In this document: in pieces, positions 3,016-62,527 of the stretch
How the letters are laid out: each line of letters starts with the position of its first letter
Numbering within the stretch: the first letter of the stretch is position 1
From: an uncultured Bacilli bacterium
GTDB taxonomy: Bacteria > Bacillota_I > Bacilli_A > RF39 > UBA660
NCBI GenBank assembly: GCA_947586655.1
Contig: CANPXR010000001.1
Span: 1,638-65,637 of the forward strand
Length of the DNA: 64,000 nt
Direction: 5' to 3'
Position numbers and translations under genes: made by a program
Notes under the pieces: generated by a model
What the model saw: only the letters and a program-made list of their open reading frames with translations
What the model was told of the DNA's origin: nothing
Database searches by the model: none

Positions 3016-3089
3016 ACTTTTTAGCTCCTTTCGCCATGACTAATGTTAGTCATAGATATAAAATCTTCTATATTATAACAATAGTTAAA

Positions 3090-32353: not shown

Positions 32354-32968
32354 TCAATTCATTTCGTTTAAAATATTTTTAAGTTTTATTCTTATTCTAA
32401 ACAAAGCACTTTCAATTGATTTGGTGGTTTTTCCAAGATTTTTTGATATTTCTTCATAATTGAAACCATATAATCTTAATTCATATACTTGTTTTTCAAA
32501 AGTGGTTAATTCCTCACTTATCAATTTATTAAAACTTTGTAAATTCTCTTTACTTACCAAAAGATCCTCAAGCCCACCCGTATTATTATAAACAATATTT
32601 TCAAATCCATTTTTATCATCATCATTATGATAATCTATGGAATAAGATTCATTTAATATACTATGTTTTTTCCTACTAGCCTGCCTTACTGCCGTTATTA
32701 TTTTTCTTTTAATACAAATAAATGCAAAAGTAGAAAATTTTATGTCTTTTTGATCTTTGTAACCTTTTATAGCGGAATCAAGTCCAATTAATCCCTCTTG
32801 AAACAAGTCACTATAATCGATCCCCTTACCTTCTACAAATGGCAAATACTTTTTAGCATAATATTCAATTGCTGATTCATATTTCTTAAATATAGTTTCA
32901 TTTGCTTCTTCGTTATTTTCCGATACCATATATAATAACTCAAAATCATCTTCATATTGCTTTACCAT
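32354..32968 (-). CDS. sigH: Sporulation/transition-state sigma factor (sigma-H-like)
   Basis: 204 aa, sigma-70 regions 2 and 4. Position rlmB-sigH-secE-nusG matches B. subtilis sigH. Confidence 0.7.
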   Translation of the reverse strand: MVKQYEDDFELLYMVSENNEEANETIFKKYESAIEYYAKKYLPFVEGKGIDYSDLFQEGLIGLDSAIKGYKDQKDIKFSTFAFICIKRKIITAVRQASRKKHSILNESYSIDYHNDDDKNGFENIVYNNTGGLEDLLVSKENLQSFNKLISEELTTFEKQVYELRLYGFNYEEISKNLGKTTKSIESALFRIRIKLKNILNEMN

Positions 32969-34738: not shown

Positions 34739-35011
34739 CTAGGGTTTTTTGTCCTTAAAGTAAAGAAGATGACAAAATAAACCGCCAATTATCAAAAAAA
34801 TAACTACATAGTAATTTAAAATACCATAATCTATTTTATAAAGTAAAAAATAAAAAATAATCACGTGAGAAAAGCAAAATAATAGTTCACTTATGATCTT
34901 CATAAATTTCTTTTTAAACTTAACCATTCTTAATAACTTAAAGGTAGCTAAAAAAAACATCCCATATATAAAAGAATAGAAAATAACCTTAAACTGACTT
35001 TCTAAATTCAT
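34739..35011 (-). CDS. yabQ: YabQ-like spore cortex biosynthesis membrane protein
   Basis: 90-aa multi-TM protein immediately after yabP (1-nt junction). Confidence 0.45.
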   Translation of the reverse strand: MNLESQFKVIFYSFIYGMFFLATFKLLRMVKFKKKFMKIISELLFCFSHVIIFYFLLYKIDYGILNYYVVIFLIIGGLFCHLLYFKDKKP

Positions 35012-35301
35012 TATTTAAACAACCTTGATAACATTGAATCTTCCTTCTTTGATTTTCCAGCATCTAAATATGAGAAGCCATCTATGATACCCTTAATCAT
35101 TATAGTACCATCATAGGTATCTAATTTTATTATTTCTAAGTCTCTACCTTTTATTCCTAAAGAACCCAGACTAGTTTCAAGAAGAAACTCTTCATTATCA
35201 AAACTATCAATTTTAGTTATTCCACTTATTGTTATGTTTTGCCTTTCAGTTATCATTATATTATGATTAATCGATTCTACTTTATCAGCGGTTTTATCCA
35301 T
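35011..35301 (-). CDS. yabP: Sporulation protein YabP
   Basis: 96 aa; conserved YabP core (…ITISGITKIDSFDNEEF…). Confidence 0.75.
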   Translation of the reverse strand: MDKTADKVESINHNIMITERQNITISGITKIDSFDNEEFLLETSLGSLGIKGRDLEIIKLDTYDGTIMIKGIIDGFSYLDAGKSKKEDSMLSRLFK

Positions 35302-35658: not shown

Positions 35659-35684
35659 GAAAAAAATAGCAAAATTATTGCTAT
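35659..35684 (-). terminator. Terminator overlapping the stop of the 723-aa adhesin gene
   Basis: ATAGCAAaattaTTGCTAT hairpin followed by a T7 run on the minus strand. Confidence 0.45.
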
Positions 35685-37852: not shown

Positions 37853-40800
37853 CTAATATCTGCAAATCATCATCATCAACCGCAGCATAGTTAACGAAGG
37901 AACCCGCTTCTTTTCTTGATATATCAAATGCAATGGTAAGATATTTCTTCTCTCCACCAGCAATTAATTGATCAGATAACGTATTATTTTCTAGGTACCC
38001 TTGTTCCGTCATTACCCAACCTTTATTTTCTTCATAACTATCGTTAAATGTCATGCCATCTGGCACATAATCTTTTACTAAATAAATATAGCCCGGATAA
38101 TAACCAACATTTTCAAGTTCTATCGTATAAATAACTTTTATACTTACATTACTTATATCTTTTACGTCTAACTTAGCTAACGTAACGTTACCATAATCTT
38201 TTATAGTAGATACACCTAATTTGTTAGTAGTTATTGCTCTTGTTACGTACTTTGTTAGTTTTACAGAATATATTTTTCTTAGTGCAAGTCCAAGGTTAAC
38301 ATTACTAACAGTTCTAGTATTATTAGTAATTTGAATATTATCTGTTCTAATTATTGGAAGTATTTTATTATCTTCATTAGACGGGTCATCAACTTCACAA
38401 TCATTTCCATCACATGTTTCTTCGTTATCTTTAGATTCATTGTCGGTACTTTTTGCATTAGTGTTAACCTTATTAGGTTCTGTTGCCTTAAAAGAAGATG
38501 TAATAGATTTATCTAGTAATACTTGATATGGTGAAATCCCATATTTAGCGGTATTATAATCCGCAACAACGTAATACGTTCCAGGATCTAGATCAGATAA
38601 ACTATAATTTCCTTTTTCATCGGTAGTTGTAGTTTTTATCAATTCATCATTAGATGCATTATATAACTTTAACGTTACACCAGAAACCTTTTTTTCGGTT
38701 GAATCCATAATACCATTAGAATCAAAATCTTCCCAAACAGTACCAGTTATTCTTTTACTAATAACACTAATAGTTAGTGGTTTTATGGTTTTTACTATTT
38801 CTTTACCATTTTCATTTCTAATTAAATATGAACTAATCTTATATGAATCATCCGTTTTGTTACCAATTGGATTTATCTTTATACTTTGTTCATAAGTTTT
38901 TCCAGGCTCTAAACTGATTCCACTAACCTTAATGGCAGAAACACCTAAATAACCATCGCCTTGGTATTTAGAGCATTGTTCCCATGCTATTTCCTCACTT
39001 GACATTTTATCATTTAATAATGCTGGTAAACTAGTTGTACATAAAGCATTTGTTGGCACATCAGAAAGAGTATAAGTTCCAGTATAATTATTATTTTCGT
39101 TCTCGACTGAATTATATGGAAGAATGGTTATAACTTCTAAATTAGAATGCGTTATTTTGTTACTATCATTATTATATAATTTTGTACTTACACTAAAACT
39201 AGTTTCTTTAGATATAGCAGGATATGGTGTATATAGTGAATAAGAAATTACTTCATTATTTTGGTATGTTATGTTTCTGGTTGTTGTCCTTAACTCAGCA
39301 CTTGAAGAATCACTAACTTCAGTTGTCGACGTCGCTTGAATCATGACCTTAATAGGAAGCTTAGTACCAGAAGAAATATCAATGTCATAGCTCGTTTCAA
39401 ATACAACTGGGTCAATCCACTCATTGATACGTTTTCCTTTTAGTACATACCTAAGTTTTGTACTACCACCAGTATTGCTAGTAGTTGGAAGATCATAATT
39501 TTCATTATAAACATAATTAACACCCTTAGGCAATTCAACTTCAACAATAACCTCTTTTAAATCAGAAATTCCTGCAATATTGGTATTAACTAATTCAGCT
39601 GGCATGCTAACGCTTGGATATATTTTCCAAACAGAGCTGTTTACGTCAGCAGCATTAATTACAACATCTTGGTTAATATCATTAATAAATACATCCGTTC
39701 TAGCCTTAAACGCAGTAACGTTTATAGAACTATTACTAGATACAGTTCTTGTTTGAGATCCGCTATTTTCATTTTCATCAAATGATGATGAAGAAGTAAG
39801 CGTAATTTTTCCGGCGTTATTTCCAACTGATGTTACTAATCTAATTCTAAAATCAACTACCGTTCCAGGCTTAACATTTTTTAAAGTGTATGTTAGGTAA
39901 GATAATCTTAGTTTATCATTTTTTGATAAAGCATCATTTAAAGCATCAAAAGTATCATAAGATTTTGCATCACCTACTGTACAAGAAGTGCCTGTTTCAC
40001 CCATTTCACATGCATAATATTTTACCGTTACGTTGTCCTTTAAATCTTCGTTTATGTAATAAGGTCCTTGTTCCTCTACGTTCGTACCATATTCAATCAT
40101 GGTAAAAGGTGCGGTTGGATTACTTGATGTTGATATAGCGTCGCCAATAGGAATTGTTGTTGTAAGACTCTTTATGTCATTATCTCCATCACTAGAATAA
40201 CTAAATAAAGACCTTAAAACAACTTCTTCACCATAAGATAAATAATCATTTTCTAATAACTTATTTAGTTTGCCATCTTCCTCTTTATTAAAGGTTAATT
40301 CATTTGTCTTTGTTCCAGCAGAATAAAATTTATTAATAACACCATCAGACTCGGCGTTACCAACTTTTAATTTAACTGTTATATTATCAGTTATACCTTC
40401 ACTACGCTCTGATTTAGCATTTACAAAATATGATCCTAATGCAACAAAATCATTCCCATATAATCTAATTGATCCATCTGATTTTATTCCTTCTATATTA
40501 AAATCATATTTAGTTTGTATATTAACGGTGTTTTTTGCTTCTAATTCGAAATCATTTTTATCAGTTATTGTATAAACAGCGTTATAAGTACCCGCCTTTG
40601 TTTTATCAATGGCTGTTTCTTCGCTTGTTGCAGGATTATAATATTTAACTGAACATTTATTTTCAGTATTACACTCTGTGTCCACATCGTCAACTGCTAT
40701 GTGAGGATTACCAAAAGAAGAACCATCAGACGAGGTATAAATCGTACTTGCAGTAAGAGTCTGGGCTTTTGTGTAAGATAAACTTTCAAGCACTTTAACT

Positions 40801-42317
40801 GTCCTCGTTAAAGTAAATCTTTCCTGACCTTCAAAACTTGGCTCATTATCACCCTCAGGATTAAGTGTATAAGTTACCGTATACGTGCCAACGCTATTAG
40901 TATCAATTGACGGAACCGGTGCCTCTTCGCCTTCTTTTTTAATTACACTTTCGTAGCTTAAATTAGAAGTTTTACCATTTTTGGAAATACCTTCTTCGCT
41001 ATATTTTTGCCCCTTTAACAAGATGATTTCTTTATTACCATTTAATGAATAAGTATTCTCTCCTACTTTGACGGTTGTTTTTTCACTTACTTTTACGTTT
41101 CTTTTAACCGTTGTAGAACCAGTTGCAGAAGTATACTTATAACTAACGATATATTCTCCAACCGCATTAGTTATATTTTTTTCTTCGATTTGTGTCTCAA
41201 CATTATCTTTTTTAGTTATTTTTTTCTCACATGAATTATTTTTAGCTTTACATATATCTTCGCCATTACCGGTTGCCGATACACCATATTCAGTGTATTC
41301 TTCCCCTACTTCTAAGTTTATTGTTTTATCACCAATTAAGTATAAATCTGGATTTGTATTTTCCGTTACCGTTCCAGACACTCCATCAGAAGATTTAGTT
41401 AAACCCGTAACTTTACCCGAATTATAAACAGAATAACGTTGATAATCATTTTTGTAATGTGGCATTGAGGTTAATAAATTAGAACTTTTGTCATATAATC
41501 CAAAGTACTTACTATTATTACTTTCTAATTCAATTTGAGAATTTATATTATTTACACTTTGTGTTGCCTCTAGCACTAATTTTATATTAGCGTCAAAATA
41601 AAGTCCTTCTAGACTATTTTGATTTTTTAACCTGCTTTTATCAAAGCCTACTAATATACCAAATGGTGCTAATCTTCCGCTGGCATAATCAGAAGATTTG
41701 TACGCTGTTCCAGATATAATTTTTTGCGTTAGTTCTACCTTTTCACTTTCTACTGTAACGGTAGGAATACTACCTATTGTATTATCACCAGATTTTATAG
41801 TTGGCTTTATTTCTTTACCATTTTCAACGTTTCTTACGTTTAGGTATAATTGTTTGGTTTGTTCAACGTTTGGTTCATTATCATAAATGGTAACTTCTAC
41901 GGTTTTTCCACCGTTTGATAATTCATACTTAGAAGTAGGCTCAGAAGTATCCCAAACAGCATCAATATCATCAGGGACACTAGCTTCTATTTCAACGGTT
42001 GATGAAGTCGTTTGATAAGACACTTCATACACTAACGTACTAAAACTTTTAATCGTTGTAATTTCTTGGGTTGAATCTACCTTTTTTGCCTTAACAGCTT
42101 TTAAAGTTGCAACCCCTGTTGAGTCACCTGCAGCATAAACTATTAAAGCAACTATACTAGAAATTAAAAATATACCAATGAATGCTGATATGTACTTATG
42201 CTCTTTAATAAAATTAGTTATCCTTACCTTTTGGATAAGAATCCAATCAACTATTCTAGATTTTAAATTTACCTTTGACATATTCATAGTATAGCCCTCC
42301 AATTTTACTTTATACAC
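37809..42317 (-). CDS. Giant surface adhesin (1502 aa). N-terminal signal anchor, many Ig-like repeats, Cna-B/SdrD-B-like domain, C-terminal DUF11-like domain.
   Basis: Cna-B-type block KVSGVTLKLYNASNDELIKTTTTDEKGNYSLSDLDPGTYYV. C-terminal NVSIKVIYTIELENVGYYPGYIYLVKDYVPDGMTF resembles the DUF11 repeat. Ser/Thr/Asn-rich. Overlaps the downstream adhesin gene. Confidence 0.6.
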   Translation of the reverse strand: MYKVKLEGYTMNMSKVNLKSRIVDWILIQKVRITNFIKEHKYISAFIGIFLISSIVALIVYAAGDSTGVATLKAVKAKKVDSTQEITTIKSFSTLVYEVSYQTTSSTVEIEASVPDDIDAVWDTSEPTSKYELSNGGKTVEVTIYDNEPNVEQTKQLYLNVRNVENGKEIKPTIKSGDNTIGSIPTVTVESEKVELTQKIISGTAYKSSDYASGRLAPFGILVGFDKSRLKNQNSLEGLYFDANIKLVLEATQSVNNINSQIELESNNSKYFGLYDKSSNLLTSMPHYKNDYQRYSVYNSGKVTGLTKSSDGVSGTVTENTNPDLYLIGDKTINLEVGEEYTEYGVSATGNGEDICKAKNNSCEKKITKKDNVETQIEEKNITNAVGEYIVSYKYTSATGSTTVKRNVKVSEKTTVKVGENTYSLNGNKEIILLKGQKYSEEGISKNGKTSNLSYESVIKKEGEEAPVPSIDTNSVGTYTVTYTLNPEGDNEPSFEGQERFTLTRTVKVLESLSYTKAQTLTASTIYTSSDGSSFGNPHIAVDDVDTECNTENKCSVKYYNPATSEETAIDKTKAGTYNAVYTITDKNDFELEAKNTVNIQTKYDFNIEGIKSDGSIRLYGNDFVALGSYFVNAKSERSEGITDNITVKLKVGNAESDGVINKFYSAGTKTNELTFNKEEDGKLNKLLENDYLSYGEEVVLRSLFSYSSDGDNDIKSLTTTIPIGDAISTSSNPTAPFTMIEYGTNVEEQGPYYINEDLKDNVTVKYYACEMGETGTSCTVGDAKSYDTFDALNDALSKNDKLRLSYLTYTLKNVKPGTVVDFRIRLVTSVGNNAGKITLTSSSSFDENENSGSQTRTVSSNSSINVTAFKARTDVFINDINQDVVINAADVNSSVWKIYPSVSMPAELVNTNIAGISDLKEVIVEVELPKGVNYVYNENYDLPTTSNTGGSTKLRYVLKGKRINEWIDPVVFETSYDIDISSGTKLPIKVMIQATSTTEVSDSSSAELRTTTRNITYQNNEVISYSLYTPYPAISKETSFSVSTKLYNNDSNKITHSNLEVITILPYNSVENENNNYTGTYTLSDVPTNALCTTSLPALLNDKMSSEEIAWEQCSKYQGDGYLGVSAIKVSGISLEPGKTYEQSIKINPIGNKTDDSYKISSYLIRNENGKEIVKTIKPLTISVISKRITGTVWEDFDSNGIMDSTEKKVSGVTLKLYNASNDELIKTTTTDEKGNYSLSDLDPGTYYVVADYNTAKYGISPYQVLLDKSITSSFKATEPNKVNTNAKSTDNESKDNEETCDGNDCEVDDPSNEDNKILPIIRTDNIQITNNTRTVSNVNLGLALRKIYSVKLTKYVTRAITTNKLGVSTIKDYGNVTLAKLDVKDISNVSIKVIYTIELENVGYYPGYIYLVKDYVPDGMTFNDSYEENKGWVMTEQGYLENNTLSDQLIAGGEKKYLTIAFDISRKEAGSFVNYAAVDDDDLQILVVAGTSEEEGDVNE

Positions 42318-42595: not shown

Positions 42596-43399
42596 TTACC
42601 TAGGATATCCGGTGGTCATAACCCCCCTTGTATTAACTCCACCAATTCCGTCCTTTCCATTACTCGTTTTATCTAAAAGGGTTAATAAATCAACATTGTT
42701 ATTTTTATCTGATAAGCTAAGAGACAATGCTATTATCGCCGGATCAAGAGCATGAATATTTATTTTCTTAGGGCTTGATGCAAAATTTGCTCCTGCTTTT
42801 ATAAGCCTTTCATAGTCAGATTGGCAAGCACCAGCGATTATTATTAATTTATCATAATCACGTTGATACCTACGACATACTTTTACAGCTTCAGAAAAAT
42901 ATTTAGAATTTTTCTTGATTTCTGAATCATGACCAGTAATAACAACAATATCTGGATTAATATCCTCTAAATATTTTTCGATGTTTTGTGCCATTTCATT
43001 CTCTGGGGAAAAAACACCAAAAGCTAAGACATTAGCTTTTTTATAAAAATCTAAGCACCTATTTAAATACTCTCGGTCCCCGTCAACATGAAGAATTTTA
43101 CCTGGAATATAAAAATAATCACTTCGTTCAAAATTCCTTATGTTTTCCAATTTTTCATAAAATATTCTATCCTCATCATTATTTTTAGTCTCCACTAAAA
43201 TTAAATCATTAACGTTACTATCCGCGCAAAGTCTTACGTTTACACCTTTTAGGTAAGCAATGCCTTCTACTATTTTTTCTATTTTAAAAACAACGTCATT
43301 ATCATGAGATATCCTTGTAACAAAATCTCCTACCTTAAACAATATCATCACCCAATAAAATATATGCAAAAAAAAACTAAACATTCTTTCGTTTAGCAT
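42596..43399 (-). CDS. yabG: Sporulation-specific protease YabG (peptidase U57). The likely start is the internal Met (MILFKVGDF…).
   Basis: Blocks PGKILHVDGD, IVVITGHD, AGACQS, AGANFASSP and NIHALDP all match B. subtilis YabG. Confidence 0.85.
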   Translation of the reverse strand: MLNERMFSFFLHIFYWVMILFKVGDFVTRISHDNDVVFKIEKIVEGIAYLKGVNVRLCADSNVNDLILVETKNNDEDRIFYEKLENIRNFERSDYFYIPGKILHVDGDREYLNRCLDFYKKANVLAFGVFSPENEMAQNIEKYLEDINPDIVVITGHDSEIKKNSKYFSEAVKVCRRYQRDYDKLIIIAGACQSDYERLIKAGANFASSPKKINIHALDPAIIALSLSLSDKNNNVDLLTLLDKTSNGKDGIGGVNTRGVMTTGYPR

Positions 43400-43904: not shown

Positions 43905-44546
43905 TCATTTGTCTTGTTTTTTCGTAACTAGACCCGCATCCACTTCATATATTTCATCAGCTAAACCATAAATGTCTTCTTTTATGTGAGATGCTAAAAT
44001 AATTAGTTTCCCTTTGTTTTTTTCTTCTTTTAAAATTTTTCTTATATCATTTGCAGTACTGTTTTCTACACCATTAAATGGTTCATCAAAAATCATTATA
44101 TCGGGATTTTCCATTAAAACTTGTGCAATCCCAAGTTTTTGTTTGGTTCCTAATGAATACTTTGAATACTTTTTATTTGCTTCACTTTTTAGATTAACCT
44201 TAACTAAAGTAGCATTAATTTCATCATCCCCTATTTTATTTTGAATGGAAGAAAGAAGTTTTAAATTTTCAAATCCAGTTAAATCAGGTAAAAAATTTGG
44301 TTTTTCTATTAATGCCCTAGTATTTTTAGGAAAACTATTTTCCTTTAGATAATTAACACCATCAAGTGAAATTTCACCTTCGGTTACGTTATAAAAACCA
44401 CATATTATCTTAAGTAATACGCTTTTACCGCTACCATTTCTTCCAACGAAACCATATATTTTCCCGCCCGTAAACTTCAAATTTACATCTTTTAATACTT
44501 CGTTATTTCCAAACCTTTTTGATACGTTTTTTATTAATAATTCCAT
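43905..44546 (-). CDS. Short ABC transporter ATP-binding protein (ABC-2 type)
   Basis: Walker A GRNGSGKS, degenerate signature YSLGTKQK, Walker B IMIFDEP. 213 aa. Confidence 0.8.
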   Translation of the reverse strand: MELLIKNVSKRFGNNEVLKDVNLKFTGGKIYGFVGRNGSGKSVLLKIICGFYNVTEGEISLDGVNYLKENSFPKNTRALIEKPNFLPDLTGFENLKLLSSIQNKIGDDEINATLVKVNLKSEANKKYSKYSLGTKQKLGIAQVLMENPDIMIFDEPFNGVENSTANDIRKILKEEKNKGKLIILASHIKEDIYGLADEIYEVDAGLVTKKQDK

Positions 44547-44555
44547 AAGTCCTCC

Positions 44556-45242
44556 TTAAACGTTTTCAATTATTTTTTTATTAAATAATTTAAATATAAT
44601 GGTAAGTAAAAATAAAAATATTATGTTTATTAAAATCATTCCTAATATTTGGTTATTACTTAACCCATAAATATTTTTAGGTATTATAGCCATTAGAAAA
44701 GCAAAAACAAAATAAGGAATAAACTTCATCTTACTTGTGCATGCACTAATGACATAAATTATAATAAATAAAAATTGAATAAATATTATATAAATAAAAT
44801 CTGAAAAAAGTAATCTGAGTGCACTGTTAAAATTTGCACTTTTTCCTAATAATACTACCGCTAAAAATAGTATGACATACTGGGTTAACTTTAAGATAAA
44901 AGTTATGTTTATGAATACTATGCTCTTTTTTAATAACCACTTTGAAGGCTTTATTCTTAAGAAAATATTATCTAATTGATAAGCAATGTCCTTAACGTAA
45001 ATATCAACTATCAAAAAGATATATATGGATAAATTAAATAATAACATTATAAATTGTAATATACTACTTTGATTAAAACCAATCCAATTTGTTCCCATAC
45101 AAAGATTAACTCTATTAACAAAGGTAATTTTTGCAGCAATATTTATAAGAAGCAAAATAAGTGGAACTAAAAATAATGCAAGTAATATTTTTTTCCTTTT
45201 TTTTATTAAATAACTAATATCATTAATCATTAAATATTTCAT
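44556..45242 (-). CDS. ABC-2-type integral membrane protein (~6 TM)
   Basis: Highly hydrophobic 228 aa; 4-nt ATGA overlap with the upstream gene. Confidence 0.5.
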   Translation of the reverse strand: MKYLMINDISYLIKKRKKILLALFLVPLILLLINIAAKITFVNRVNLCMGTNWIGFNQSSILQFIMLLFNLSIYIFLIVDIYVKDIAYQLDNIFLRIKPSKWLLKKSIVFINITFILKLTQYVILFLAVVLLGKSANFNSALRLLFSDFIYIIFIQFLFIIIYVISACTSKMKFIPYFVFAFLMAIIPKNIYGLSNNQILGMILINIIFLFLLTIIFKLFNKKIIENV

Positions 45243-45991
45243 GTTATCACCATTTTTTTACTTTTTAAAGAAATTTTATACATAATATATACTATCAATC
45301 CTAATATAAACATAAATAATATTGAAAAAATAACCTCCGTCATAAAAGAAGAATAGCTAAGACTTAAAAAGTAATTCCACGGAATTATTGTAAAACTACT
45401 TCCTAATGACGTACTTTGTAGTGGTAACATAAACCCCACCATAAATATTGCGCTAGTAATCATAGTTATCTTTTCTTTTAAAATAATATAGATTGAAGCT
45501 GAAATTAACATAATTAATATTGATAATACAATATATCTACCCATGTAGAAAATAGTATAAACAAAATTACTTATGCCATAATTTTGATAACTATATATGT
45601 TAAAATTACATGGTTTAAAAAAAATCAATATTACAAAATAAAATATGAAAAATAATAAAAAGAAAAATAGATTTAAAACGATGGTTGTTTTAAATAATTC
45701 TTTTATATAATTAGCCTTATTTTTTAAACGCATTATATAAAAACTAAAATTCTTATTAAAGATCGTACAGGTATTTAACGTGTTTAAAAATAATAAAGCA
45801 AACATAAAAATATTAAATATATAAAACTCAAACGGTAAAAGAATTGAATCAAAGAAATTATCTTTAGCAATCCCTAAAACAATTGCTGCGTATAATGCCA
45901 AAATTATTAACATTAAAAACAATAATCTAAATCTATCAGTAGATGTAATATAGCTTAGTACCTTTATTTGATTATGCAGTTTGTTTTTCAT
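45239..45991 (-). CDS. ABC-2-type integral membrane protein
   Basis: 250 aa, multi-TM; translationally coupled to its neighbours. Confidence 0.5.
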   Translation of the reverse strand: MKNKLHNQIKVLSYITSTDRFRLLFLMLIILALYAAIVLGIAKDNFFDSILLPFEFYIFNIFMFALLFLNTLNTCTIFNKNFSFYIMRLKNKANYIKELFKTTIVLNLFFFLLFFIFYFVILIFFKPCNFNIYSYQNYGISNFVYTIFYMGRYIVLSILIMLISASIYIILKEKITMITSAIFMVGFMLPLQSTSLGSSFTIIPWNYFLSLSYSSFMTEVIFSILFMFILGLIVYIMYKISLKSKKMVIT

Positions 45992-46928
45992 TTGATATTA
46001 TAACCCCTTCCTTGTTTCGATAATATAAGTGAATAAATAAGAAGGATAATAATTGTATTACAAATGATACTAATATTGCAATTAAACAAATATTTCCATC
46101 AAAAAACCAATAACCCGTAATGTTAAAAATATCCGTCAAATTTTTAAAGCCTAAAATTTTATTTATTACGAAGGCATAAACCACTATGTAAATAAACAAA
46201 TCAACCAACAAAAATAACACATAGCCCATAATGATTGCAACTAATTTATTTTTATTTTTTAAACATGCATACAACCCAATATTACAATATAATATGTTTA
46301 AAAAGTATTGTGATATACAAATTGCAAAACCATATAAGAAAAAGTGCGAATACTTCCAATGGTCATAAACGGCAAAATTCTTAAATTCTTCTGTTAGAGG
46401 GACATTAAAATTAAACCTAGTTACTACCATAGAAATAACAAAAATAAGTATAAGTGCCAGTGGAGTAATTAAAGAAATCTTAAAAATTTGCTTTCTTATC
46501 TTTTTTAAATAGTCATTATACTCCATTCTCATTAAGTAATTTTTTATCATCCCACTTGAAAAATCAGAATGGATAGTACCAACTAATGCAATTATGATTA
46601 ATAATGGAGAAAAGAATTGTAACATACTAAAAATTGTATGCTCAACGATATTACACGTAAGGGTAATAGTATCCAATTTTTTATATTCTTCTTTTGGGTC
46701 ACTTGTTTTAATATATTTCTCTAAATTTTCTTCATTAGGAAAACGCTTACAATACTCATGGTTAGGATTCTTTTTTTCATAACAATTTTCTTTTATAGCA
46801 TAATAACCTTTTGCATAAGAAAAATTATCTTTATAATATTGAAAAAAAGAGCAACCTATAATAAACACGATTATTAGAAACGATAAAATTATAAATTTGT
46901 TTCTTTTAAAAGTCATGGTAACCTCCAT
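45972..46928 (-). CDS. ABC-2-type permease with a Cys-containing ~100-aa extracytoplasmic loop after TM1
   Basis: 318 aa; TM1, then a Cys/Tyr/Lys-rich ectodomain, then 5 TMs. First gene of the operon; a putative TTGAAA-17-TATACT promoter lies at ~46940–46975. Confidence 0.5.
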   Translation of the reverse strand: MEVTMTFKRNKFIILSFLIIVFIIGCSFFQYYKDNFSYAKGYYAIKENCYEKKNPNHEYCKRFPNEENLEKYIKTSDPKEEYKKLDTITLTCNIVEHTIFSMLQFFSPLLIIIALVGTIHSDFSSGMIKNYLMRMEYNDYLKKIRKQIFKISLITPLALILIFVISMVVTRFNFNVPLTEEFKNFAVYDHWKYSHFFLYGFAICISQYFLNILYCNIGLYACLKNKNKLVAIIMGYVLFLLVDLFIYIVVYAFVINKILGFKNLTDIFNITGYWFFDGNICLIAILVSFVIQLLSFLFIHLYYRNKEGVIISNEKQTA

Positions 46929-47026
46929 AATAAATATGGTAATTAGTAACTCAAAACACGTATCTTACCTTAATAAGTATATCATTATATATGTTTGTTT
47001 TCAACTTAAAAGGGAATTACAAAACT

Positions 47027-47860
47027 TTAAAATTTTTCATTTGTTTTACTTAACTCGTTTGAAATTTTAACAAATTCCTCTATCGTAATATTTTCTGCTC
47101 TTTCATTTATATCTTTATTAAAAGTTTTTAATATACTATTTATTTTATTTAAATCATAGTCTGATAAGTTATTTTTTAGCGTTTTTCTTTTTTGAGTAAA
47201 GGCGGTTTTAACAAGTTTAAAAAAATGCGGTTCATTATTTAACTTTATTTTATCTTGTTTTTTATTAAAAACGACCACGGCAGAATCAACGTTTGGTTTT
47301 GGATAAAAAACATTTCTAGATACAATAAAAGCTTTTTTTACATCAAAATAATAATTTAAGAAGATGGTTAAAGAGTTATAGCTTTTTGTACCTGACATAG
47401 CAGAAAATCTATCGGCAACCTCTTTTTGTACCATAACAATTATTTTTTCTACGTCTATTTGTTCATTAATAAACTTACTTATTATTGGAGTTGTTATATA
47501 ATAAGGAAGGTTTGCGATAACCATGATGTTTTCATACTGATATTTTTTTATGTCTTCTTTTATGTTACGATTTAGAAAATCATCATAAATAACGTCAACG
47601 TTTTTATATTCTTCAAGTATCTTATCTAGAGGTTTTTTCAAACTTAAATCTATTTCATAACCCAATACTTGTTTTGCTTTTTCACTTAATTTCTTAGTTA
47701 ATGCTGCAGCTCCTACCCCAATTTCTATTACAAGGGTATTTTTTGTTATATTACCCAAGTTAACAATATTATTTAGTACGTTTTGATCTAGCAAAAAGTT
47801 TTGACCAAACTTCTTTTTAAAAACAAAGTCATTTTCTTTTAAAATTTCCCTTACATTCAT
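47027..47860 (-). CDS. rsmA: 16S rRNA (adenine1518/1519-N6)-dimethyltransferase
   Basis: KsgA N-terminal motif FGQNFLLD and SAM-binding GxGxG. Confidence 0.9.
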   Translation of the reverse strand: MNVREILKENDFVFKKKFGQNFLLDQNVLNNIVNLGNITKNTLVIEIGVGAAALTKKLSEKAKQVLGYEIDLSLKKPLDKILEEYKNVDVIYDDFLNRNIKEDIKKYQYENIMVIANLPYYITTPIISKFINEQIDVEKIIVMVQKEVADRFSAMSGTKSYNSLTIFLNYYFDVKKAFIVSRNVFYPKPNVDSAVVVFNKKQDKIKLNNEPHFFKLVKTAFTQKRKTLKNNLSDYDLNKINSILKTFNKDINERAENITIEEFVKISNELSKTNEKF

Positions 47861-47865
47861 AATTA

Positions 47866-47896
47866 CTCCCTATACAAAAAAGCAAATAAAATAATT
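47866..47896 (-). terminator. Terminator after the yabE-like gene
   Basis: GCAAATAAAAtaaTTTTATTTGC 10-bp stem followed by a T-run on the minus strand. Confidence 0.45.
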
Positions 47897-47924
47897 TTAT
47901 TTGCCTATTTTACTTAATTTTAAA

Positions 47925-48515
47925 TTATCTCCAGGTAACCGCTACATCAATTTGGGTTGGGTTTCTTTTAGCGAAACCTCCGGTATCACAAACTATTGCG
48001 TATCCTAGTGAACTCTCTATTATAGTTCCGCGTGGACGAATATCATAATTAGCAGCAACCATTACATAATCACCAAGCATTTTTACCCCGTCATCACGAA
48101 TCCAATATGGATATTTTTCTTCTGAATATCCCATTCTTCTCATCGTTCTTATCACGCTAGTCATGTTTAAATTATAATAAGATTCTTTCCCTGAAGGACC
48201 AATTACTACACCCTTACTTTTTGAAAGAACATCGCCATTCCAACCACCCTTTAAAACCGTAGTAGTACGAGTTGTGGTAGTAACTTCTTTAGTAGTCGTT
48301 GCAGACATCGTTTCCTCGGTGATTACGTTCGTAGTTGGCTTTACAGACGCAACATAGTTGTTAGGATCAAACGTCTTTTTTGTGGTAGAAACAGTAATTA
48401 CATCTCCACTTCCTGCGGAAAACAATATTCCGGCTTTTGAAAAACCAATAAATGCCATTAAACAAATCACAAGGACTAATAATGCACCCTTAATTTTTCT
48501 ATTTAAATGTTTCAC
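47925..48515 (-). CDS. 3D-domain cell-wall protein (YabE/RpfB-like). GTG start.
   Basis: N-terminal TM, Thr-rich linker, C-terminal 3D-domain-like sequence (…DYVMVAANYDIRPRGTII…VCDTGGFA…IDVAVTW). tatD-yabE-ksgA order as in Bacillus. Confidence 0.6.
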   Translation of the reverse strand: MKHLNRKIKGALLVLVICLMAFIGFSKAGILFSAGSGDVITVSTTKKTFDPNNYVASVKPTTNVITEETMSATTTKEVTTTTRTTTVLKGGWNGDVLSKSKGVVIGPSGKESYYNLNMTSVIRTMRRMGYSEEKYPYWIRDDGVKMLGDYVMVAANYDIRPRGTIIESSLGYAIVCDTGGFAKRNPTQIDVAVTWR

Positions 48516-49662: not shown

Positions 49663-50232
49663 TTAAATTGATTCAAAGTAACTCTCTAAAAACGAAATAG
49701 AAAATTTTATCAATTCATCATGACTTTCTAAAAAATTATTACCTAAGTTTTCTAAGATTAAGTATCCCGCTAAATCACCGTTAGGAGAAATAGGAAAAAT
49801 ATAATATGGCTCTTTTAACCTATAATCTTTTGTAAGTAATATTTTTTTATTTATATCATTTAATACACGTCCATCAAATTCAGAAGAAAGTTTATCATTT
49901 AATAAATCTAATACATTTGAGAAAACTATTTCATCAATGTTAGTTACAAAAACATTTGAATTCGTTTTAGATCCTAGTGCTTTAATAAATAAACTTATGA
50001 ACTCATCTTTTTTATTTATTATTGTGTGTTTTTTAAGTAAAATCGTTTCCATGTCACTTAAAAATATCTCAAGTAATTCTCCTGGTTTAATATGCATGTT
50101 TTTTCTTATTTCCTTTGGGATTACAACCCTTCCCAACTCATCAATTCTTCTTGTTATTCCAGTAGTTTTCATACAATTCATCCCTTCTTTTTTAGAATGT
50201 ATAAAACTGGTAAATTTATTCAATAACATCAA
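49663..50232 (-). CDS. spoVT: Stage V sporulation protein T (AbrB-N domain plus GAF-like C-terminus). The likely start is MKTTGITRRID at ~50172.
   Basis: MKTTGITRRIDELGRVVIPKEIRKN is nearly identical to B. subtilis SpoVT MKATGIVRRIDDLGRVVIPKEIRRT. mfd-spoVT adjacency. Confidence 0.8.
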   Translation of the reverse strand: MMLLNKFTSFIHSKKEGMNCMKTTGITRRIDELGRVVIPKEIRKNMHIKPGELLEIFLSDMETILLKKHTIINKKDEFISLFIKALGSKTNSNVFVTNIDEIVFSNVLDLLNDKLSSEFDGRVLNDINKKILLTKDYRLKEPYYIFPISPNGDLAGYLILENLGNNFLESHDELIKFSISFLESYFESI

Positions 50233-56523: not shown

Positions 56524-56712
56524 TTAGTAGTTAAAAAGGAGAAATAATGCTAATCCAACAATTCCTGGTACATCAAATAAGCTTGCTACTATTATGGTTA
56601 TTATGTTAATGGGAATCATCAAATTAAGAGATGATAAAAAGGTATTATAACCAAATAATAAAATCATTCCTATAACTACTTTTTTTAATATTTTTAATAG
56701 ATATTTAAACAT
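56524..56712 (-). CDS. bofA: Pro-sigma-K processing inhibitor BofA
   Basis: 62 aa, two TM helices; IPINIITIIVASLFDVPGIVGLALFLL parallels B. subtilis BofA HVPINLVTTAISGILGIPGIAALVV. Downstream of recR as in Bacillus. Confidence 0.6.
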   Translation of the reverse strand: MFKYLLKILKKVVIGMILLFGYNTFLSSLNLMIPINIITIIVASLFDVPGIVGLALFLLFNY

Positions 56713-57363: not shown

Positions 57364-57663
57364 CTACAAGAAACTTTCTAAGGAACCAGCCTGACTTCCT
57401 AATTTATCATTTATTTCTTTATCAACTTTTTTTAGTGCATCATTCATGGCAATCATAATCATATCTTCTAATATTTCAAAATCTTCCTGGTTTAAAGAAG
57501 CATCTTGCTTTATCTTTACTGATATAACTTCTCTTTTTCCATTCATTTTAACGGTAACGAGTTCTGAAATTCCTTCAAAAGTCATCATTTCTATTTTCTT
57601 TTTTGAATTCATTAAATTTTTTTGCATGGCTTGTGCCTGCTTCATTAAAGCTTGTATATTCAT
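57364..57663 (-). CDS. ybaB: Nucleoid-associated protein YbaB/EbfC
   Basis: 99 aa; conserved YbaB sequence between dnaX and recR. Confidence 0.9.
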   Translation of the reverse strand: MNIQALMKQAQAMQKNLMNSKKKIEMMTFEGISELVTVKMNGKREVISVKIKQDASLNQEDFEILEDMIMIAMNDALKKVDKEINDKLGSQAGSLESFL

Positions 57664-59297
57664 TATTTTTCCTCCACTTCTATCAGCTCATTAAAATCAT
57701 TCATTGAACTTTCTGTTTTTATTTTTTTTATTTGATCTAACAATTCTTTTTCATCTTTTAATTCCAGCTCGTTATTTTTAACTAACTTTACGTATTTTGG
57801 TCTTATACTTTGCCAGTATTCTTCAGTTATATATACTACTTTATATTTAGAATCGCATATTTTCTTTATTAATTCTGTGCTCAAATCGTAATCATTTTCA
57901 ATTTTTAATAATAGTGTTTGCGCAGGAAGGGTAACTATGATTCCTTCTTTTGACGCTGCAACTGGCTTTCCTTCTAATAATATACCTGCACATTTTTTAT
58001 AGGTATCACCTATTAAATAATCATTTAAATTTTCCCATAGATTTTTAATAAATTTTATCTCATCTCTAGATGAGTTTTTCAAAATATTATTTATTCTTAC
58101 TTCTTTTAATTTATTAATAACTTTATCTAATTTACTATTTTTTATTGTATCTGGTTTATTTAATTTTTCTTGATTAGTTTTAATATAATGATTTTTATCA
58201 TCATCTTTTTTCAATGTTTCACGTGAAACATTAAGTTTATCCATTACTTTTATTATTTGAATTTCAAAAGTAAGGTCATTTTGAGCACCATATTGAAGTT
58301 TGTTTAATAAATTTGAAATATTATCCATTATTAAATATAATTCTTCTTCACTATAATTATCTATAATTTGTAATTCATTGGTGTTTATATCATTTAAACA
58401 TATATTTTTCTTATATAAAATACCTTGTTTTACAAAATTAACTAATTTTTGGGTTATCAAATAGAAGTCTTTTCCTTGATTGGACCATTTCATTATCATT
58501 TTTACAATTTTTTCATATTCTCTTTTTTGTAATGACGTAAAAAAATCAATTACTTCTGATTTTGAAATCGTTCCTAACAATTCTTGCACGTCTTTTAATG
58601 ATATTTCATCGTCACAAAAAGCAAAAGCCTGATCTAACATACCTATGGCGTCTCTCATTCCTCCGTTTGAATTTTCAATAATTTCTGTTAATGCATCTTT
58701 TGTTATTTTTATTTTTTCTTGTTTTATTATGTTTTTTAAACATTTTTCCATTTGTTCTTTAGAAATGTTTTTAAAATCAAACCTTTGACACCTTGAAATT
58801 ACCGTCACCGGAAGTTTTTGTGGTTCCGTTGTTGCTAATATAAAAATAACGTATTCTGGTGGTTCTTCTAACGTTTTGAGTAATGCGTTAAAAGCCCCTA
58901 TAGAAAGCATATGTACTTCATCTATTATATATACTTTGTATTTTGACATTGAAGGAACTAAACCAACTTTATTTTTAAGTTCCCTAATTTCGTCTACTCC
59001 ATTATTAGAAGCAGCATCAATTTCTATAATATCAGGATTATTATTTTCGTTAAACGACTTGCAACTATCACAACAATTACATGCATCACCCGTTGTATTA
59101 TTAAGGCAATTTATTGCTTTTGCAAATAATTTTGCACTACTTGTTTTACCAGTTCCCCTTGGGCCAGTAAATAAATATGCATGGCTTAATTTGTTGTTTT
59201 TTATTACGTTTCTTAACGTTTTAACTATCGTGCCCTGACCATAAAGTAATTCAAAAGATTTTGGTCTATACTTTCTGTATAATGTTTGATACGCCAT
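57663..59297 (-). CDS. dnaX: DNA polymerase III subunits gamma/tau. The true start is MAYQTLYRKYRP at 59297; the ORF in the track extends to 59381 through the promoter region.
   Basis: Walker A GPRGTGKTS, zinc module CNCCDSC, SRC motif. RBS AAAGGAG precedes the Met-29 codon. Confidence 0.9.
   Translation of the reverse strand: MAYQTLYRKYRPKSFELLYGQGTIVKTLRNVIKNNKLSHAYLFTGPRGTGKTSSAKLFAKAINCLNNTTGDACNCCDSCKSFNENNNPDIIEIDAASNNGVDEIRELKNKVGLVPSMSKYKVYIIDEVHMLSIGAFNALLKTLEEPPEYVIFILATTEPQKLPVTVISRCQRFDFKNISKEQMEKCLKNIIKQEKIKITKDALTEIIENSNGGMRDAIGMLDQAFAFCDDEISLKDVQELLGTISKSEVIDFFTSLQKREYEKIVKMIMKWSNQGKDFYLITQKLVNFVKQGILYKKNICLNDINTNELQIIDNYSEEELYLIMDNISNLLNKLQYGAQNDLTFEIQIIKVMDKLNVSRETLKKDDDKNHYIKTNQEKLNKPDTIKNSKLDKVINKLKEVRINNILKNSSRDEIKFIKNLWENLNDYLIGDTYKKCAGILLEGKPVAASKEGIIVTLPAQTLLLKIENDYDLSTELIKKICDSKYKVVYITEEYWQSIRPKYVKLVKNNELELKDEKELLDQIKKIKTESSMNDFNELIEVEEK
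58213..58232. repeat. Palindrome copy A (AATGTTTCACGTGAAACATT), inside the dnaX coding sequence
   Basis: Perfect 20-bp palindrome, identical to copy B. Encodes LNVSRETL in DnaX. No promoter-like hexamers downstream. Confidence 0.6.
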
Positions 59298-59324
59298 ACA
59301 TATTCTCCTTTCTAATACGATAAT

Positions 59325-59382
59325 ATTATAACATCTAAATAAATTTTTTAAAACTAAAAGATAATGTTTCACGTGAAACATT
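59325..59382 (-). promoter_or_regulatory. Putative dnaX promoter plus upstream palindromic operator (copy B): palindrome, 10 nt, TTTTAA, 17 nt, TATAAT
   Basis: Perfect 20-bp palindrome at 59363..59382, overlapping the tadA stop. -35 at 59353..59348 and -10 at 59330..59325 on the minus strand. RBS and ATG lie ~25 nt downstream. Confidence 0.5.
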
Positions 59383-59788
59383 ATCTCCTTTTCTTAAAGA
59401 AAGTTTGAATTATATTTAACGATTGTCTTTCATAATCTTTTAGAAATATAAAATCACTTTTATTAGTTACTATTTTTTCATCTTTTTTTAACGTGAAATA
59501 AACTTTACCAATTCTACTTAATTTTATTGCTTCAGTACACATTTTACATGGTTCTAATGTCACGTACATTTCACATTCGTTTAATCGCCAATTTTTTAAT
59601 CTTTTTGAAGCTTTCGCTATTGCAATTATTTCAGCATGTAAAATAGCATTTTTCTTTTTTTCAACCATATTATGTGCCTTTGCAATTATTTTATTATCTT
59701 TAACAATTATTGCACCAACTGGAACTTCCCCATGTCGTGACGCTTTTTTTGCTTCTTCTAGCGCTAATTTTATATATTTATCAAGCAT
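59381..59788 (-). CDS. tadA: tRNA-specific adenosine deaminase
   Basis: 135 aa; HAEIIAI and PCKMC zinc-binding CDA motifs. Confidence 0.85.
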   Translation of the reverse strand: MLDKYIKLALEEAKKASRHGEVPVGAIIVKDNKIIAKAHNMVEKKKNAILHAEIIAIAKASKRLKNWRLNECEMYVTLEPCKMCTEAIKLSRIGKVYFTLKKDEKIVTNKSDFIFLKDYERQSLNIIQTFFKKRR

Positions 59789-59801
59789 TTTTAACTCCTA
59801 T

Positions 59802-59819
59802 ATGTTTCACGTGAAACAT
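59802..59819. repeat. Palindrome copy C (ATGTTTCACGTGAAACAT), between the ffs terminator and the tadA RBS
   Basis: 18-bp perfect palindrome ending 6 nt before the tadA Shine-Dalgarno (ataggagttaaaaATG). Confidence 0.6.
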
Positions 59820-59825
59820 TTATAC

Positions 59826-59907
59826 ATAAAATAAAAGCACACACGAAAAGAGGTTATTAAGGCTGCTATTTTTCAATCCTGACCTGATTCTAACATTTCC
59901 GTTGTGC
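59826..59907 (-). ncRNA. ffs: Short (4.5S-type) signal recognition particle RNA
   Basis: Minus strand contains the universally conserved domain IV element GGUCAGG-auu-GAAA-aau-AGCAGCC (compare E. coli GGUCAGGUCCGGAAGGAAGCAGCC). Flanking 12-bp helix GCACAACGGAAA/UUUUCGUGUGUGC, then U-run CUUUUAUUUU. Position next to tadA/dnaX matches the Bacillus scr locus. The promoter predicts +1 at the G of GCACA. Confidence 0.55.
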
Positions 59908-59913
59908 AATGCT

Positions 59914-59970
59914 ATTCTATTATATTATTTAAAAATAATCAAGAGTTTTATAATGTTCCACGTGAAACAT
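59914..59970 (-). promoter_or_regulatory. Putative ffs promoter plus upstream palindromic operator (copy D): palindrome, 10 nt, TTGATT, 17 nt, TAGAAT
   Basis: Copy D is ATGTTTCACGTGGAACAT (1 mismatch) at 59953..59970. -35 at 59942..59937 and -10 at 59919..59914. Register identical to the dnaX promoter copy. Confidence 0.5.
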
Positions 59971-60001
59971 TGTATTTTTAAATAATTTAAATTATAAGTA
60001 T

Positions 60002-62527
60002 CTACGACTCGCTAACTTCAGTTTCACCATTATTTTCTACTTCATTATCTAAACTTTCTTCTTTTTCAACAACCGAAACTGTTGATACTTTTTGACCTTC
60101 TCTTAAATTTATAAGTCTAACTCCCTGAGTCACCCTACTCATCTGGGAAATTTTATCTAACGAAATTCTAATAACAATTCCCTGATCAGTGATAATCATT
60201 AAGTCCTTATTGGAAGATACCGTTTTAAATACTACTATGTTACCGTTTTTTTCAGTTATGTTTAATGCTTTAACACCTTTACTTCCACGGTGGGTTAATC
60301 GGTATTCTTTTATGTTAGTTTGTTTTCCATAACCTTTTTCCGTAACTACAAGTACGTTTTGTCCTTCTTTTGCAATTTCAGCACCAACACAGAAACAACT
60401 TTCAGATAATTCAATACCTTTTACTCCACTTGCGGTTCTTCCTATTATCCTTACTTCGCTTTCATTAAATCTATTCATACGTCCGTCGTTAGATGCAATA
60501 ACTATTTCATCATTACCATTTGTAAAGTGCACTGATAAAACTTCATCATTCTCTTTTAGAGTTATAGCTATCTTACCATTTTTTCTGATGTTTTCAAATT
60601 CACAAACATTTGTACGTTTAATTAAGCCTTTCTTAGTAACGATAACTAAATATTTATTATTCTCATCACCATTATCTAATAAAATGTTATTAACTTTTTC
60701 GTCTTTTTCTATTGGTAATAAATTAATTATTGGTAAACCTTTTGATTGTCTTGAAAATTCTGGTATTTCATATCCTTTGATTCGATATACCTTTCCTTTA
60801 TTAGTAAAGAACATTACGTAATTATGTGTTGTTCCTGATTTTAATATTTCTACAAAATCCTCGTCGTTCGTAGACATTCCTTTAATACCTACTCCACCTT
60901 TGTTTTGTAATTTATATGTATCCGTTGTCATCCTTTTAATATATCCATTATGAGTAAGAGCTATTATTATGTCTTCTTCTGGAATTAAAGATTCATCTTC
61001 AATGTAATCAATGGCGGTCATATCAATAGAAGTTCTTCTTTCATCAGCGTATTTTTTCTTTATTTCTAACATTTCTTCTTTTATTATGTTTAATACTTTT
61101 TGTTCTGACGCTAATATTTCTCTTAAGTTTTCTATTTCTTTTAGCAACTCATTTAGTTCGTTTTCTATTTTATCTCTTTCTAATCCAGTTAATCTTCTTA
61201 GTCGCATTTCAAGAATACTATTACTTTGAATTTCAGAAAGACCAAATTTGTTCATTAACTTTTCTTTTGCATCTTGGTCATCTAGCGCCCCTCTAATAAT
61301 TTTAACAACTTCATCAATGTTATCTAAAGCTATTTTTAAACCTTCTAAGATATGAACCCTTTTTTCATCTTCGTTTAGTTCGTATCTAGTTCTTCTTATG
61401 ATAACTTCTTTTTGATGATCAATGTATTTTGAAATAATATCTTTTAATCCAAGTGTTTTTGGGGTACCATTATCTATTACTAAAAATATTATTCCATAAT
61501 TAACTTGGAAATTAGTATGTTTATATAAATTATTTAGCACAACCTGGGCGTTTGCGTCTTTTTTTAATGTTATGGTTATTTTTACACCTTTTTTTAAATC
61601 CGTATGATAATCTGAAATTCCTTCTATTATCTTACAATGAACAAGTTCCGCAACTTTGTTTTTTAATTCTAACGTGTTTGTTCCATATGGTACTTCGGTT
61701 ATAACTATTTGACTATGATTTCCTACTTCTTCTATGGATGCCCTACTTCTTATTGTTATGCTTCCTCTTCCGGTTTCATAAGCTTTTTTTATTCCGGAAT
61801 TACCCAAAATTATTCCTCCAGTTGGAAAATCAGGGCCTTTTATGTAATGCATTAAACCATTAACATCTATATCCGGATTATCTATGTAAGCAATACAACC
61901 ATCTATTACTTCTCCTAAGTTATGAGGAGGAATGTTCGTTGCCATACCTACTGCAATTCCCATTGAACCATTTATTAAAACGTTAGGTATCCTTGATGGT
62001 AACACAACTGGTTCAGGACTAGTTTCATCAAAGTTTGGCATCATATCAACCGTATCTTTTTTTATGTCTCTTAGCATTTCTAAAGAAATTTTAGATAGTC
62101 TTGCTTCAGTATAACGATATGCTGCTGCACCGTCACCTTCTATGTTACCAAAGTTACCATGGCCATCAACTAACATGTACCTTTGGTTAAAATCTTGTGC
62201 TAATCTTACCATTGCATCATATATTGATGAATCTCCATGAGGATGATAATGTCCCATTACATAACCAACCGTTGTTGCACTTTTTTTATGTGGTTTATCC
62301 GGAGTGTTTCCCTCTTCATACATTGACCATAATATTCTTCTGTGCACTGGTTTTAAACCATCTCTTAAATCTGGTATGGCACGAGATGTTATAACACTCA
62401 TTGAATAATCAAGGAAAGAATCAGAAATTTCTTTTACTATATCATTTTTTGCATGAGAGTCTCTTTCATGAAAAGTTCCTTTAAATTCGTTGGTTTCTTC
62501 TATTTTGTTTTCTTCTTTTTCTTCCAT
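60002..62527 (-). CDS. gyrA: DNA gyrase subunit A
   Basis: 841 aa; active-site region (…AAMRYTEARL-like YRYTEARLS), GyrA box and C-terminal beta-pinwheel repeats. Confidence 0.95.
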   Translation of the reverse strand: MEEKEENKIEETNEFKGTFHERDSHAKNDIVKEISDSFLDYSMSVITSRAIPDLRDGLKPVHRRILWSMYEEGNTPDKPHKKSATTVGYVMGHYHPHGDSSIYDAMVRLAQDFNQRYMLVDGHGNFGNIEGDGAAAYRYTEARLSKISLEMLRDIKKDTVDMMPNFDETSPEPVVLPSRIPNVLINGSMGIAVGMATNIPPHNLGEVIDGCIAYIDNPDIDVNGLMHYIKGPDFPTGGIILGNSGIKKAYETGRGSITIRSRASIEEVGNHSQIVITEVPYGTNTLELKNKVAELVHCKIIEGISDYHTDLKKGVKITITLKKDANAQVVLNNLYKHTNFQVNYGIIFLVIDNGTPKTLGLKDIISKYIDHQKEVIIRRTRYELNEDEKRVHILEGLKIALDNIDEVVKIIRGALDDQDAKEKLMNKFGLSEIQSNSILEMRLRRLTGLERDKIENELNELLKEIENLREILASEQKVLNIIKEEMLEIKKKYADERRTSIDMTAIDYIEDESLIPEEDIIIALTHNGYIKRMTTDTYKLQNKGGVGIKGMSTNDEDFVEILKSGTTHNYVMFFTNKGKVYRIKGYEIPEFSRQSKGLPIINLLPIEKDEKVNNILLDNGDENNKYLVIVTKKGLIKRTNVCEFENIRKNGKIAITLKENDEVLSVHFTNGNDEIVIASNDGRMNRFNESEVRIIGRTASGVKGIELSESCFCVGAEIAKEGQNVLVVTEKGYGKQTNIKEYRLTHRGSKGVKALNITEKNGNIVVFKTVSSNKDLMIITDQGIVIRISLDKISQMSRVTQGVRLINLREGQKVSTVSVVEKEESLDNEVENNGETEVSES

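Follow-up and report, generated by a model that had tools for sequence, protein, structure and literature searches.

Gene Content and Organisation of the Locus

The stretch of DNA analysed in this study (the window) covers 64,000 nucleotides with about 30% G+C and originates from an uncultured Bacilli bacterium. A run of minus-strand genes was found towards its end, where gyrA is followed by a gap of 213 nt (59789-60001), a gene for a TadA-like tRNA adenosine deaminase, dnaX, ybaB/ebfC, recR and bofA (Table 1). A short RNA gene, which we refer to as ffs, occupies the gap together with a promoter-like site and two parS-type palindromes. A preliminary description of this DNA had placed the RNA between gyrA and tadA with dnaX coming next, and this order was confirmed by NCBIfam and Pfam, the deaminase having TadA as its best NCBIfam family at 96.5 bits, under the cut-off of 150. 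The identical TadA protein occurs on metagenome contigs only.

Table 1. Positions of the RNA gene, its motifs and the neighbouring features in the window.
Feature	Positions	Strand	Basis or remark
gyrA (upstream neighbour)	60002..62527	-	NCBIfam NF004043, 1138 bits vs cut-off 902; Pfam domains
parS-type palindrome TGTTCCACGTGAAACA, upstream of the putative ffs promoter	59954..59969		consensus TGTTNCACGTGAAACA
promoter-like TTGATT-17 nt-TAGAAT	59914..59942	-	consensus match, 9/12
ffs, predicted small (4.5S-type) SRP RNA gene, ~80-86 nt	59828..59913	-	Rfam RF00169 and clade model R1
basal helix 5' arm (12 bp), with conserved GCACAAC	59896..59907	-	Rfam consensus 'gcGcAacg', distal-site region
GGUCAGG, 5' side of domain-IV (helix 8) loops	59878..59884	-	sequence; Rfam consensus GUCAGG
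GAAA tetraloop (GNRA class), closes helix 8	59871..59874	-	sequence and fold
AGCAGCC, 3' side of domain-IV conserved loops	59861..59867	-	sequence, Rfam, alignment
basal helix 3' arm, with conserved GUGUGUGC and bulged G	59837..59849	-	Rfam consensus 'cgugUGCgc'
U-tract UUUUAUUUU, directly 3' of basal helix	59828..59836	-	sequence; position kept in relatives
parS-type palindrome TGTTTCACGTGAAACA, between ffs U-tract and tadA start	59803..59818		consensus TGTTNCACGTGAAACA
TadA-like tRNA adenosine deaminase (downstream neighbour)	59381..59788	-	Pfam dCMP_cyt_deam_1
parS-type palindrome between tadA stop and dnaX start	59365-59380		
dnaX	57663-59297	-	start at 59297
exact parS in frame inside dnaX	58215-58230		encodes NVSRETL
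sporulation-related set (spoIIR, yabQ, yabP, yabG, spoVT-like, bofA, SigH-like)	8151-8684, 34739-35301, 42596-43399, 49663-50232, 56524-56712, 32354-32968		

MurA and a class A PBP are also encoded in the window. RFN20, RF39 and ML615J-28 are uncultured orders that lie scattered among Mycoplasmatales, Acholeplasmatales and Erysipelotrichales and include both sporulators with a wall and non-sporulators without one (PMC10868615).

Other Rfam matches above the gathering score were a ribosomal protein L10 leader at 29980-30117(-) with 70.6 bits and an L31-Firmicutes leader at 3025-3055(-) with 36.1 bits against 33.3. Two adjacent large ORFs at 35681-37852 and 37809-42317(-) encode 723 aa and 1502 aa, respectively, and their products may be surface or pilus proteins. 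The 723-aa ORF shows a weak match of the SpaH/EbpB LPXTG-pilin type (54.7 bits, cut-off 95), and the 1502-aa ORF has no NCBIfam match. Consecutive ORFs of 228, 250, 318 and 196 aa at 44556-46928 and 47925-48515(-) are likewise without an NCBIfam match and are located in the part of the window with the lowest GC (24% G+C over 44001-48000).

Identification of a Small SRP RNA Gene

When the whole window was scanned with cmscan against 4227 Rfam families, RF00169 (Bacteria_small_SRP) was matched on the minus strand at 59828-59913 with 54.4 bits (E 3.9e-9; gathering score 40), and a local scan of 801 bases returned the same match with an E of 4.9e-11. The alignment covers model positions 1-97 where only the outermost 5 bp are deleted and a single 1-nt insertion is present, so the spacing from the tetraloop to the distal motif is that of the family consensus. 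The clade covariance model (R1) scored 102.2 bits at 59828-59912 and detected exactly one copy within the window. The minus-strand sequence of 59913-59828, read directly, is 5'-AGCAUUGCACAACGGAAAUGUUAGAAUCAGGUCAGGAUUGAAAAAUAGCAGCCUUAAUAACCUCUUUUCGUGUGUGCUUUUAUUUU-3'. We conclude with high confidence that this element is the organism's single-hairpin, 4.5S-type SRP RNA gene. It is an RNA of a known family and an ordinary housekeeping gene that is found by standard Rfam-based annotation; the earlier remark that ORF-based annotation cannot see the gene holds, but pipelines that use Rfam/Infernal would all detect it.

The minus-strand GGUCAGG and AGCAGCC loops and the GAAA tetraloop were all located in the sequence at the positions where they had been described. 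By analogy with characterised SRP RNAs, the GGUCAGG side would be the binding site of the Ffh M domain and the tetraloop would be the initial docking site of FtsY. Towards the base of the hairpin, GCACAACG and CGUGUGUGC align with the model stretches gcGcAacg and cgugUGCgc in the Rfam alignment, and the basal GUGUGUGC element is the candidate for the distal site that activates the GTPases. As the RNA ends a few base pairs past the distal element, it is close to the minimum that holds both docking sites, and ffs looks like a near-minimal SRP RNA in which both have been kept.

Folding of the minus strand with RNAfold gave one unbranched hairpin with 23 pairs and -17.7 kcal/mol. From apex to base, this minimum free energy (MFE) fold consists of a 3-bp stem, two stems of 4 bp each and the 12-bp basal helix, in which 59907-59896 pairs with 59849-59837 around one bulged G. 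The 12-bp helix followed by a U-tract, as it had been described, is therefore seen in the fold, with the tract at 59836-59828. The stems are very AU-rich (36% GC) and the thermodynamic z-score of the hairpin against shuffles is only -1.1. Such a value is unremarkable, thus it is the score of the covariance model and the covariation among relatives that support the gene statistically. The same MFE z-score would also suit a chance resemblance to SRP RNA in AT-rich intergenic DNA. The probability of this explanation is negligible, as it is already refuted by the E of 3.9e-9 obtained when the whole window was scanned with 4227 families and by covariation lying far above both the shuffled and the slid controls described below.

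We did not observe any match to RF01854 (Bacteria_large_SRP) at the gathering score in the 64-kb window. Within 59500-60300 no other match of the SRP clan was found at E<=10, although clan competition keeps the best overlapping match so that this result is not an independent exclusion of the large SRP RNA. Among competing RNA families around the locus, only a meaningless isrD match (E 3.3) appeared at E<=10. The gap between gyrA and tadA, which also has to accommodate the promoter-like site and the two palindromes, leaves no room for an Alu extension of ~180 nt. The RNA lacks the Alu domain (helices 2, 3 and 4) and the long helix 5 of the ~270-nt large SRP RNA. The best match kept within the clan is the one to the small family, and the short 4.5S-type RNA without an Alu domain that had been proposed is upheld by these scans and by the compensatory changes in 71 species.

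Conservation and Covariation in Related Species

The related species comprise the 80 closest by GyrA in a species-level genome collection (loci L007-L086) and almost all of them are metagenome-assembled genomes (MAGs). They are labelled as uncultured Bacilli, Mollicutes, Tenericutes or Erysipelotrichaceae, and the label Mycoplasmatota also occurs in MAG records. Candidatus Aphodocola, Candidatus Scybalousia and Clostridium sp. CAG:594, CAG:417 and CAG:302 are among them, with Ca. Aphodocola being placed in Bacilli incertae sedis in the NCBI taxonomy. An ffs homologue of ~85 nt was found by the clade covariance model in 71 of the 80 species, one copy in each, always downstream of gyrA and on the gyrA strand. 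The nine loci without a match to this model are mostly cut off soon after gyrA.

A strict regular expression, G[GT]T[CG]A[GA]G...AGCA[GA]C, detected the motif in 37 of the 80 loci, and in nearly all close relatives the motif is positioned 100-250 nt past gyrA. One of the matches is false, being located inside the gyrA of L084. The idea based on this expression that distant relatives lack ffs was rejected, as both Rfam and the clade model find the gene there. Relatives that were missed carry motif variants such as GGUCAGAG or AAGUCAGG, and Rfam scans of 14 relatives negative for the expression gave RF00169 in 14/14 (46.5-59.4 bits) and RF01854 in 0/14.

Two alignments were used, one made with MAFFT from 32 distinct sequences and the other fitted to the model with 72 sequences. 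In the 32 aligned sequences, GGUCAGG, AGCAGC and the C-A-A and U-G-U-G of the basal element are invariant, the final C of AGCAGCC is conserved in at least 90% of the sequences and the stems are variable. The coincidence of the invariant bases with the functional motifs was counted in favour of the SRP RNA identity. RNAalifold recovered the same hairpin from the MAFFT alignment, with 23 pairs in four helices, and compensatory changes on both sides were observed in 15 of these pairs with 98.4% of cells paired. When the 3' partners were slid by 1-3 columns as a control, 33-50% of cells were paired, and none of 500 shuffles reached the observed covariation score. Nine of the 12 basal-helix pairs show compensatory changes in this alignment and the 3-bp stem that closes the tetraloop covaries at all three pairs. 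The 72-sequence alignment gave compensatory changes at 19 of the 23 pairs with 98.6% of cells paired (31-50% overall in the slid controls); as this alignment was fitted to the model, the figures based on MAFFT are the conservative ones. Across the clade, selection has kept the ffs hairpin intact.

These observations bear on the possibility that ffs is what remains of a large (6S, Alu-bearing) SRP RNA of the Bacillus type, either decayed or as a fragment of the S domain, with a functional large gene elsewhere. The search space for ffs was 64 kb of the genome, and long, Alu-bearing SRP RNAs are common among Gram-positive bacteria (PMC4231752). A pseudogene, however, would not show the compensatory substitutions that keep the hairpin in 71 species, and the promoter-like and U-tract signals hold their position across relatives. 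Every relative scanned with Rfam gives the small family only, and RF01854 was found neither in the window at the gathering score nor at the locus at E<=10. We therefore consider a remnant very unlikely and retain the reading of ffs as the working SRP RNA gene.

The tetraloop could be parsed in 60 relatives and is always of the GNRA class, with GGAA in 35, GAGA in 17 and GAAA in eight. With three GNRA loops in use across the clade, the GAAA of the window represents normal variation within the family, and the tetraloop variant that had been described is not a notable one.

Putative Promoter and Terminator Signals

Two promoter-like sites of the kind listed in Table 1 were found in the region, where chance alone would give 2.0; the region is AT-rich, and shuffled sequence is equally rich in such sites. 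Of 71 relatives, 70 have a -10-like hexamer with at least 5/6 matches shortly before the helix, and in 62 of those the distance from its end to the first paired base is 4-11 nt. The U-tract was observed in all 71 relatives, with at least six T in the nine nucleotides after the helix. A generic terminator scanner made no call over the ffs region because the AU-rich stem has too few G-C pairs for the scanner's rule. The U-tract and the RNA's own basal helix probably act as an intrinsic terminator. The positional conservation of the hexamer and of the U-tract makes an own promoter and self-termination plausible, and ffs probably has a sigma-A-type promoter to itself. The own promoter that had been proposed relies on a consensus match that does not rise above chance in the window, but the hexamer recurs in relatives.

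The hairpin and tadA share a strand, with the hairpin immediately upstream, and no convincing separate promoter was found for tadA, the sole other promoter-like site (59794..59767) overlapping its start codon; tadA may therefore depend on read-through. This arrangement would fit an explanation in which the hairpin and U-tract chiefly terminate or attenuate transcription in cis between gyrA and the tadA-dnaX operon and only look like an SRP RNA. A terminator, however, has no need of invariant GGUCAGG/AGCAGC loops, of a GNRA loop or of a GCAAC/GUGUG element, and it would not reach 54 bits on the SRP model, which leaves this explanation highly improbable as a replacement for the SRP RNA. The two roles are compatible, and the helix of the SRP RNA may double as a terminator with some read-through into tadA.

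Proposed SRP Cycle and Comparison with Known SRP RNAs

In the cycle that we propose for this RNA, the domain-IV loops would bind the Ffh M domain, as suggested by homology with the E. coli 4.5S RNA, and FtsY would dock first at the tetraloop. The dimer of the Ffh and FtsY NG domains would then relocate to the basal GCACAAC/GUGUGUGC element, the predicted distal site, where an RNA base would insert into the composite active site and trigger GTP hydrolysis, and hydrolysis would be coupled to the hand-over of the nascent chain to SecYEG. Tetraloop docking followed by GTPase activation at the distal site is the mechanism described in PMC5454536 and PMC4737761. Ffh and FtsY are not encoded in the 64-kb window. 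We take the bases of the distal site to correspond to G83/C86 of E. coli (Ataide 2011, Voigts-Hoffmann 2013).

The closest known system is the E. coli 4.5S RNA (ffs), the type member of RF00169, which is likewise a single hairpin with GGUCAGG/AGCAGCC loops, a GNRA tetraloop and a GCAAC...GUGUGC distal element at consensus spacing, and the same Ffh/FtsY/GTPase cycle would be expected for both. The E. coli RNA is 114 nt long, compared to ~85 nt for the RNA in the window, and its 5' end is matured by RNase P. The 3' end of the window RNA is apparently set by its own helix and U-tract. The two further differ in the loop (GAAA in the window, GGAA in E. coli) and in the very AU-rich stems of the window RNA, whose helix also goes without the outermost ~5 bp of the RF00169 model.

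By description, the small SRP RNAs of Mollicutes resemble the window RNA as well, as they are of minimal length, AU-rich, without an Alu domain and from the same broad branch of Bacilli. The 4.5S-like small SRP RNAs of Mycoplasma have roughly 77-80 nt. Unlike Mycoplasma, the host of the window keeps peptidoglycan genes (murA and the class A PBP) and sporulation genes.

The scRNA of B. subtilis (scr; large 6S, RF01854) shares the S-domain core and the chromosomal neighbourhood with the window RNA. The B. subtilis gene order is tadA-scr-dnaX-yaaK-recR-yaaL-bofA. In the window the order is ffs-tadA-dnaX-ybaB-recR-bofA, thus ffs is positioned on the other side of tadA compared to scr and immediately after gyrA. 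Having no Alu domain, the window RNA would be without the RNA-mediated elongation arrest of the B. subtilis type.

A parS Array Surrounding ffs

The 16-bp sequence TGTTTCACGTGAAACA occurs exactly three times in the window and TGTTCCACGTGAAACA once, all within 1.8 kb (58215-59969), where 0.03 would be expected by chance. Two of the four sites bracket ffs. The consensus, TGTTNCACGTGAAACA, is the chromosomal parS consensus that is bound by ParB/Spo0J, and B. subtilis contains 10 parS sites in total that are mostly dispersed in the origin domain (PMC7022226). Among 50 related loci with full flanks, the ~4 kb that follow gyrA contain 208 exact parS sites (1.04 per kb), compared to a single one in the ~6.4 kb of gyrB-gyrA (0.003 per kb). 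Some relatives have up to 11 sites within ~1 kb. The gyrA-ffs-tadA-dnaX cluster of parS sites looks like a compact chromosomal centromere shared across the clade and, as the array surrounds ffs, the RNA gene is embedded in this apparent centromere.

Tandem arrangements of the sites were also observed. In one relative (L070, 6668-7528), the non-coding stretch from gyrA to ffs holds 7.3 tandem copies of a parS-bearing unit of 118 bp, each unit with a second palindrome, TTATTTCCCGGGAAATAA, and in another (L055, 6856-7049) the sites are on 47-bp tandem units after ffs. These repeats resemble the centromere arrays of plasmids.

The in-frame site within dnaX falls in the variable region between the N- and C-terminal parts, and relatives carry 1-3 sites at an equivalent distance, ~1.1-1.3 kb after the tadA-dnaX site. 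The longest dnaX ORF (572 aa) starts inside a parS palindrome, where ATGTTTCACGTGAAACAT reads MFHVKH. Gene calls on identical contigs mostly choose the 544-aa start at 59297, and the extension of 28 codons (59298-59381) is probably an artefact of an ATG supplied by the palindrome.

If the placement of ffs is functional, ParB spreading or SMC loading might meet a boundary or roadblock in a small-RNA gene that is strongly transcribed; alternatively, ffs could benefit from the positioning of the centromere. The parS arrays are more striking than ffs itself and may interest researchers of chromosome segregation.

Sporulation Genes and the Alu Domain

The sporulation genes that had been reported to accompany the RNA are present in the window (yabP, yabQ, spoIIR, yabG and bofA). 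YabP (90.2 bits, cut-off 75.4) and YabQ (47.6, cut-off 32) are above their NCBIfam cut-offs, and SpoIIR (148.8 against 151.9), YabG (257.3 against 270.4) and BofA (47.8 against 53.35) are just under theirs. Weaker matches were found for a SpoVT-like AbrB-family protein and a SigH-like sigma factor. This gene set fits a divergent and possibly reduced sporulation programme as in the uncultured Bacilli orders (PMC10868615).

In the 1990s, Nakamura and colleagues proposed a link between sporulation and the Alu domain found in the SRP RNA of Gram-positive bacteria, and papers of 2021 and 2026 still mention it (PMC8137916, PMC13643137). According to Kempf et al. 2014, the presence of the domain and endospore formation are not precisely correlated (PMC4231752), and the domain is absent from Lactobacillales (Cavalier-Smith 2006); the accessible portion of Cavalier-Smith 2020 contains no account of SRP RNA distribution. 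An SRP RNA without an Alu domain in Bacilli related to Mollicutes is therefore expected and not surprising. The preliminary description had presented the RNA as reduced despite the sporulation genes: both are present in the window, but the contrast between them is weakened by the statement of Kempf et al. The Alu-less ffs beside sporulation genes probably adds another counter-example from putative spore formers.

Two linked readings are considered unlikely, namely that the members of the clade are real endospore formers with an Alu-less RNA of ~85 nt and that the placement of ffs in the parS array is functional. Spore formers with such an RNA would be a natural counter-example to the Alu domain of Bacillus serving sporulation. 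The bearing of ffs on this idea is modest, and after Kempf et al. 2014 a specialist would be little surprised. The value of ffs lies mainly in annotation, as it supplies a missing essential gene for an uncultured lineage of gut Bacilli and ~70 relatives, a clade that appears to use a near-minimal SRP RNA with both functional docking sites.
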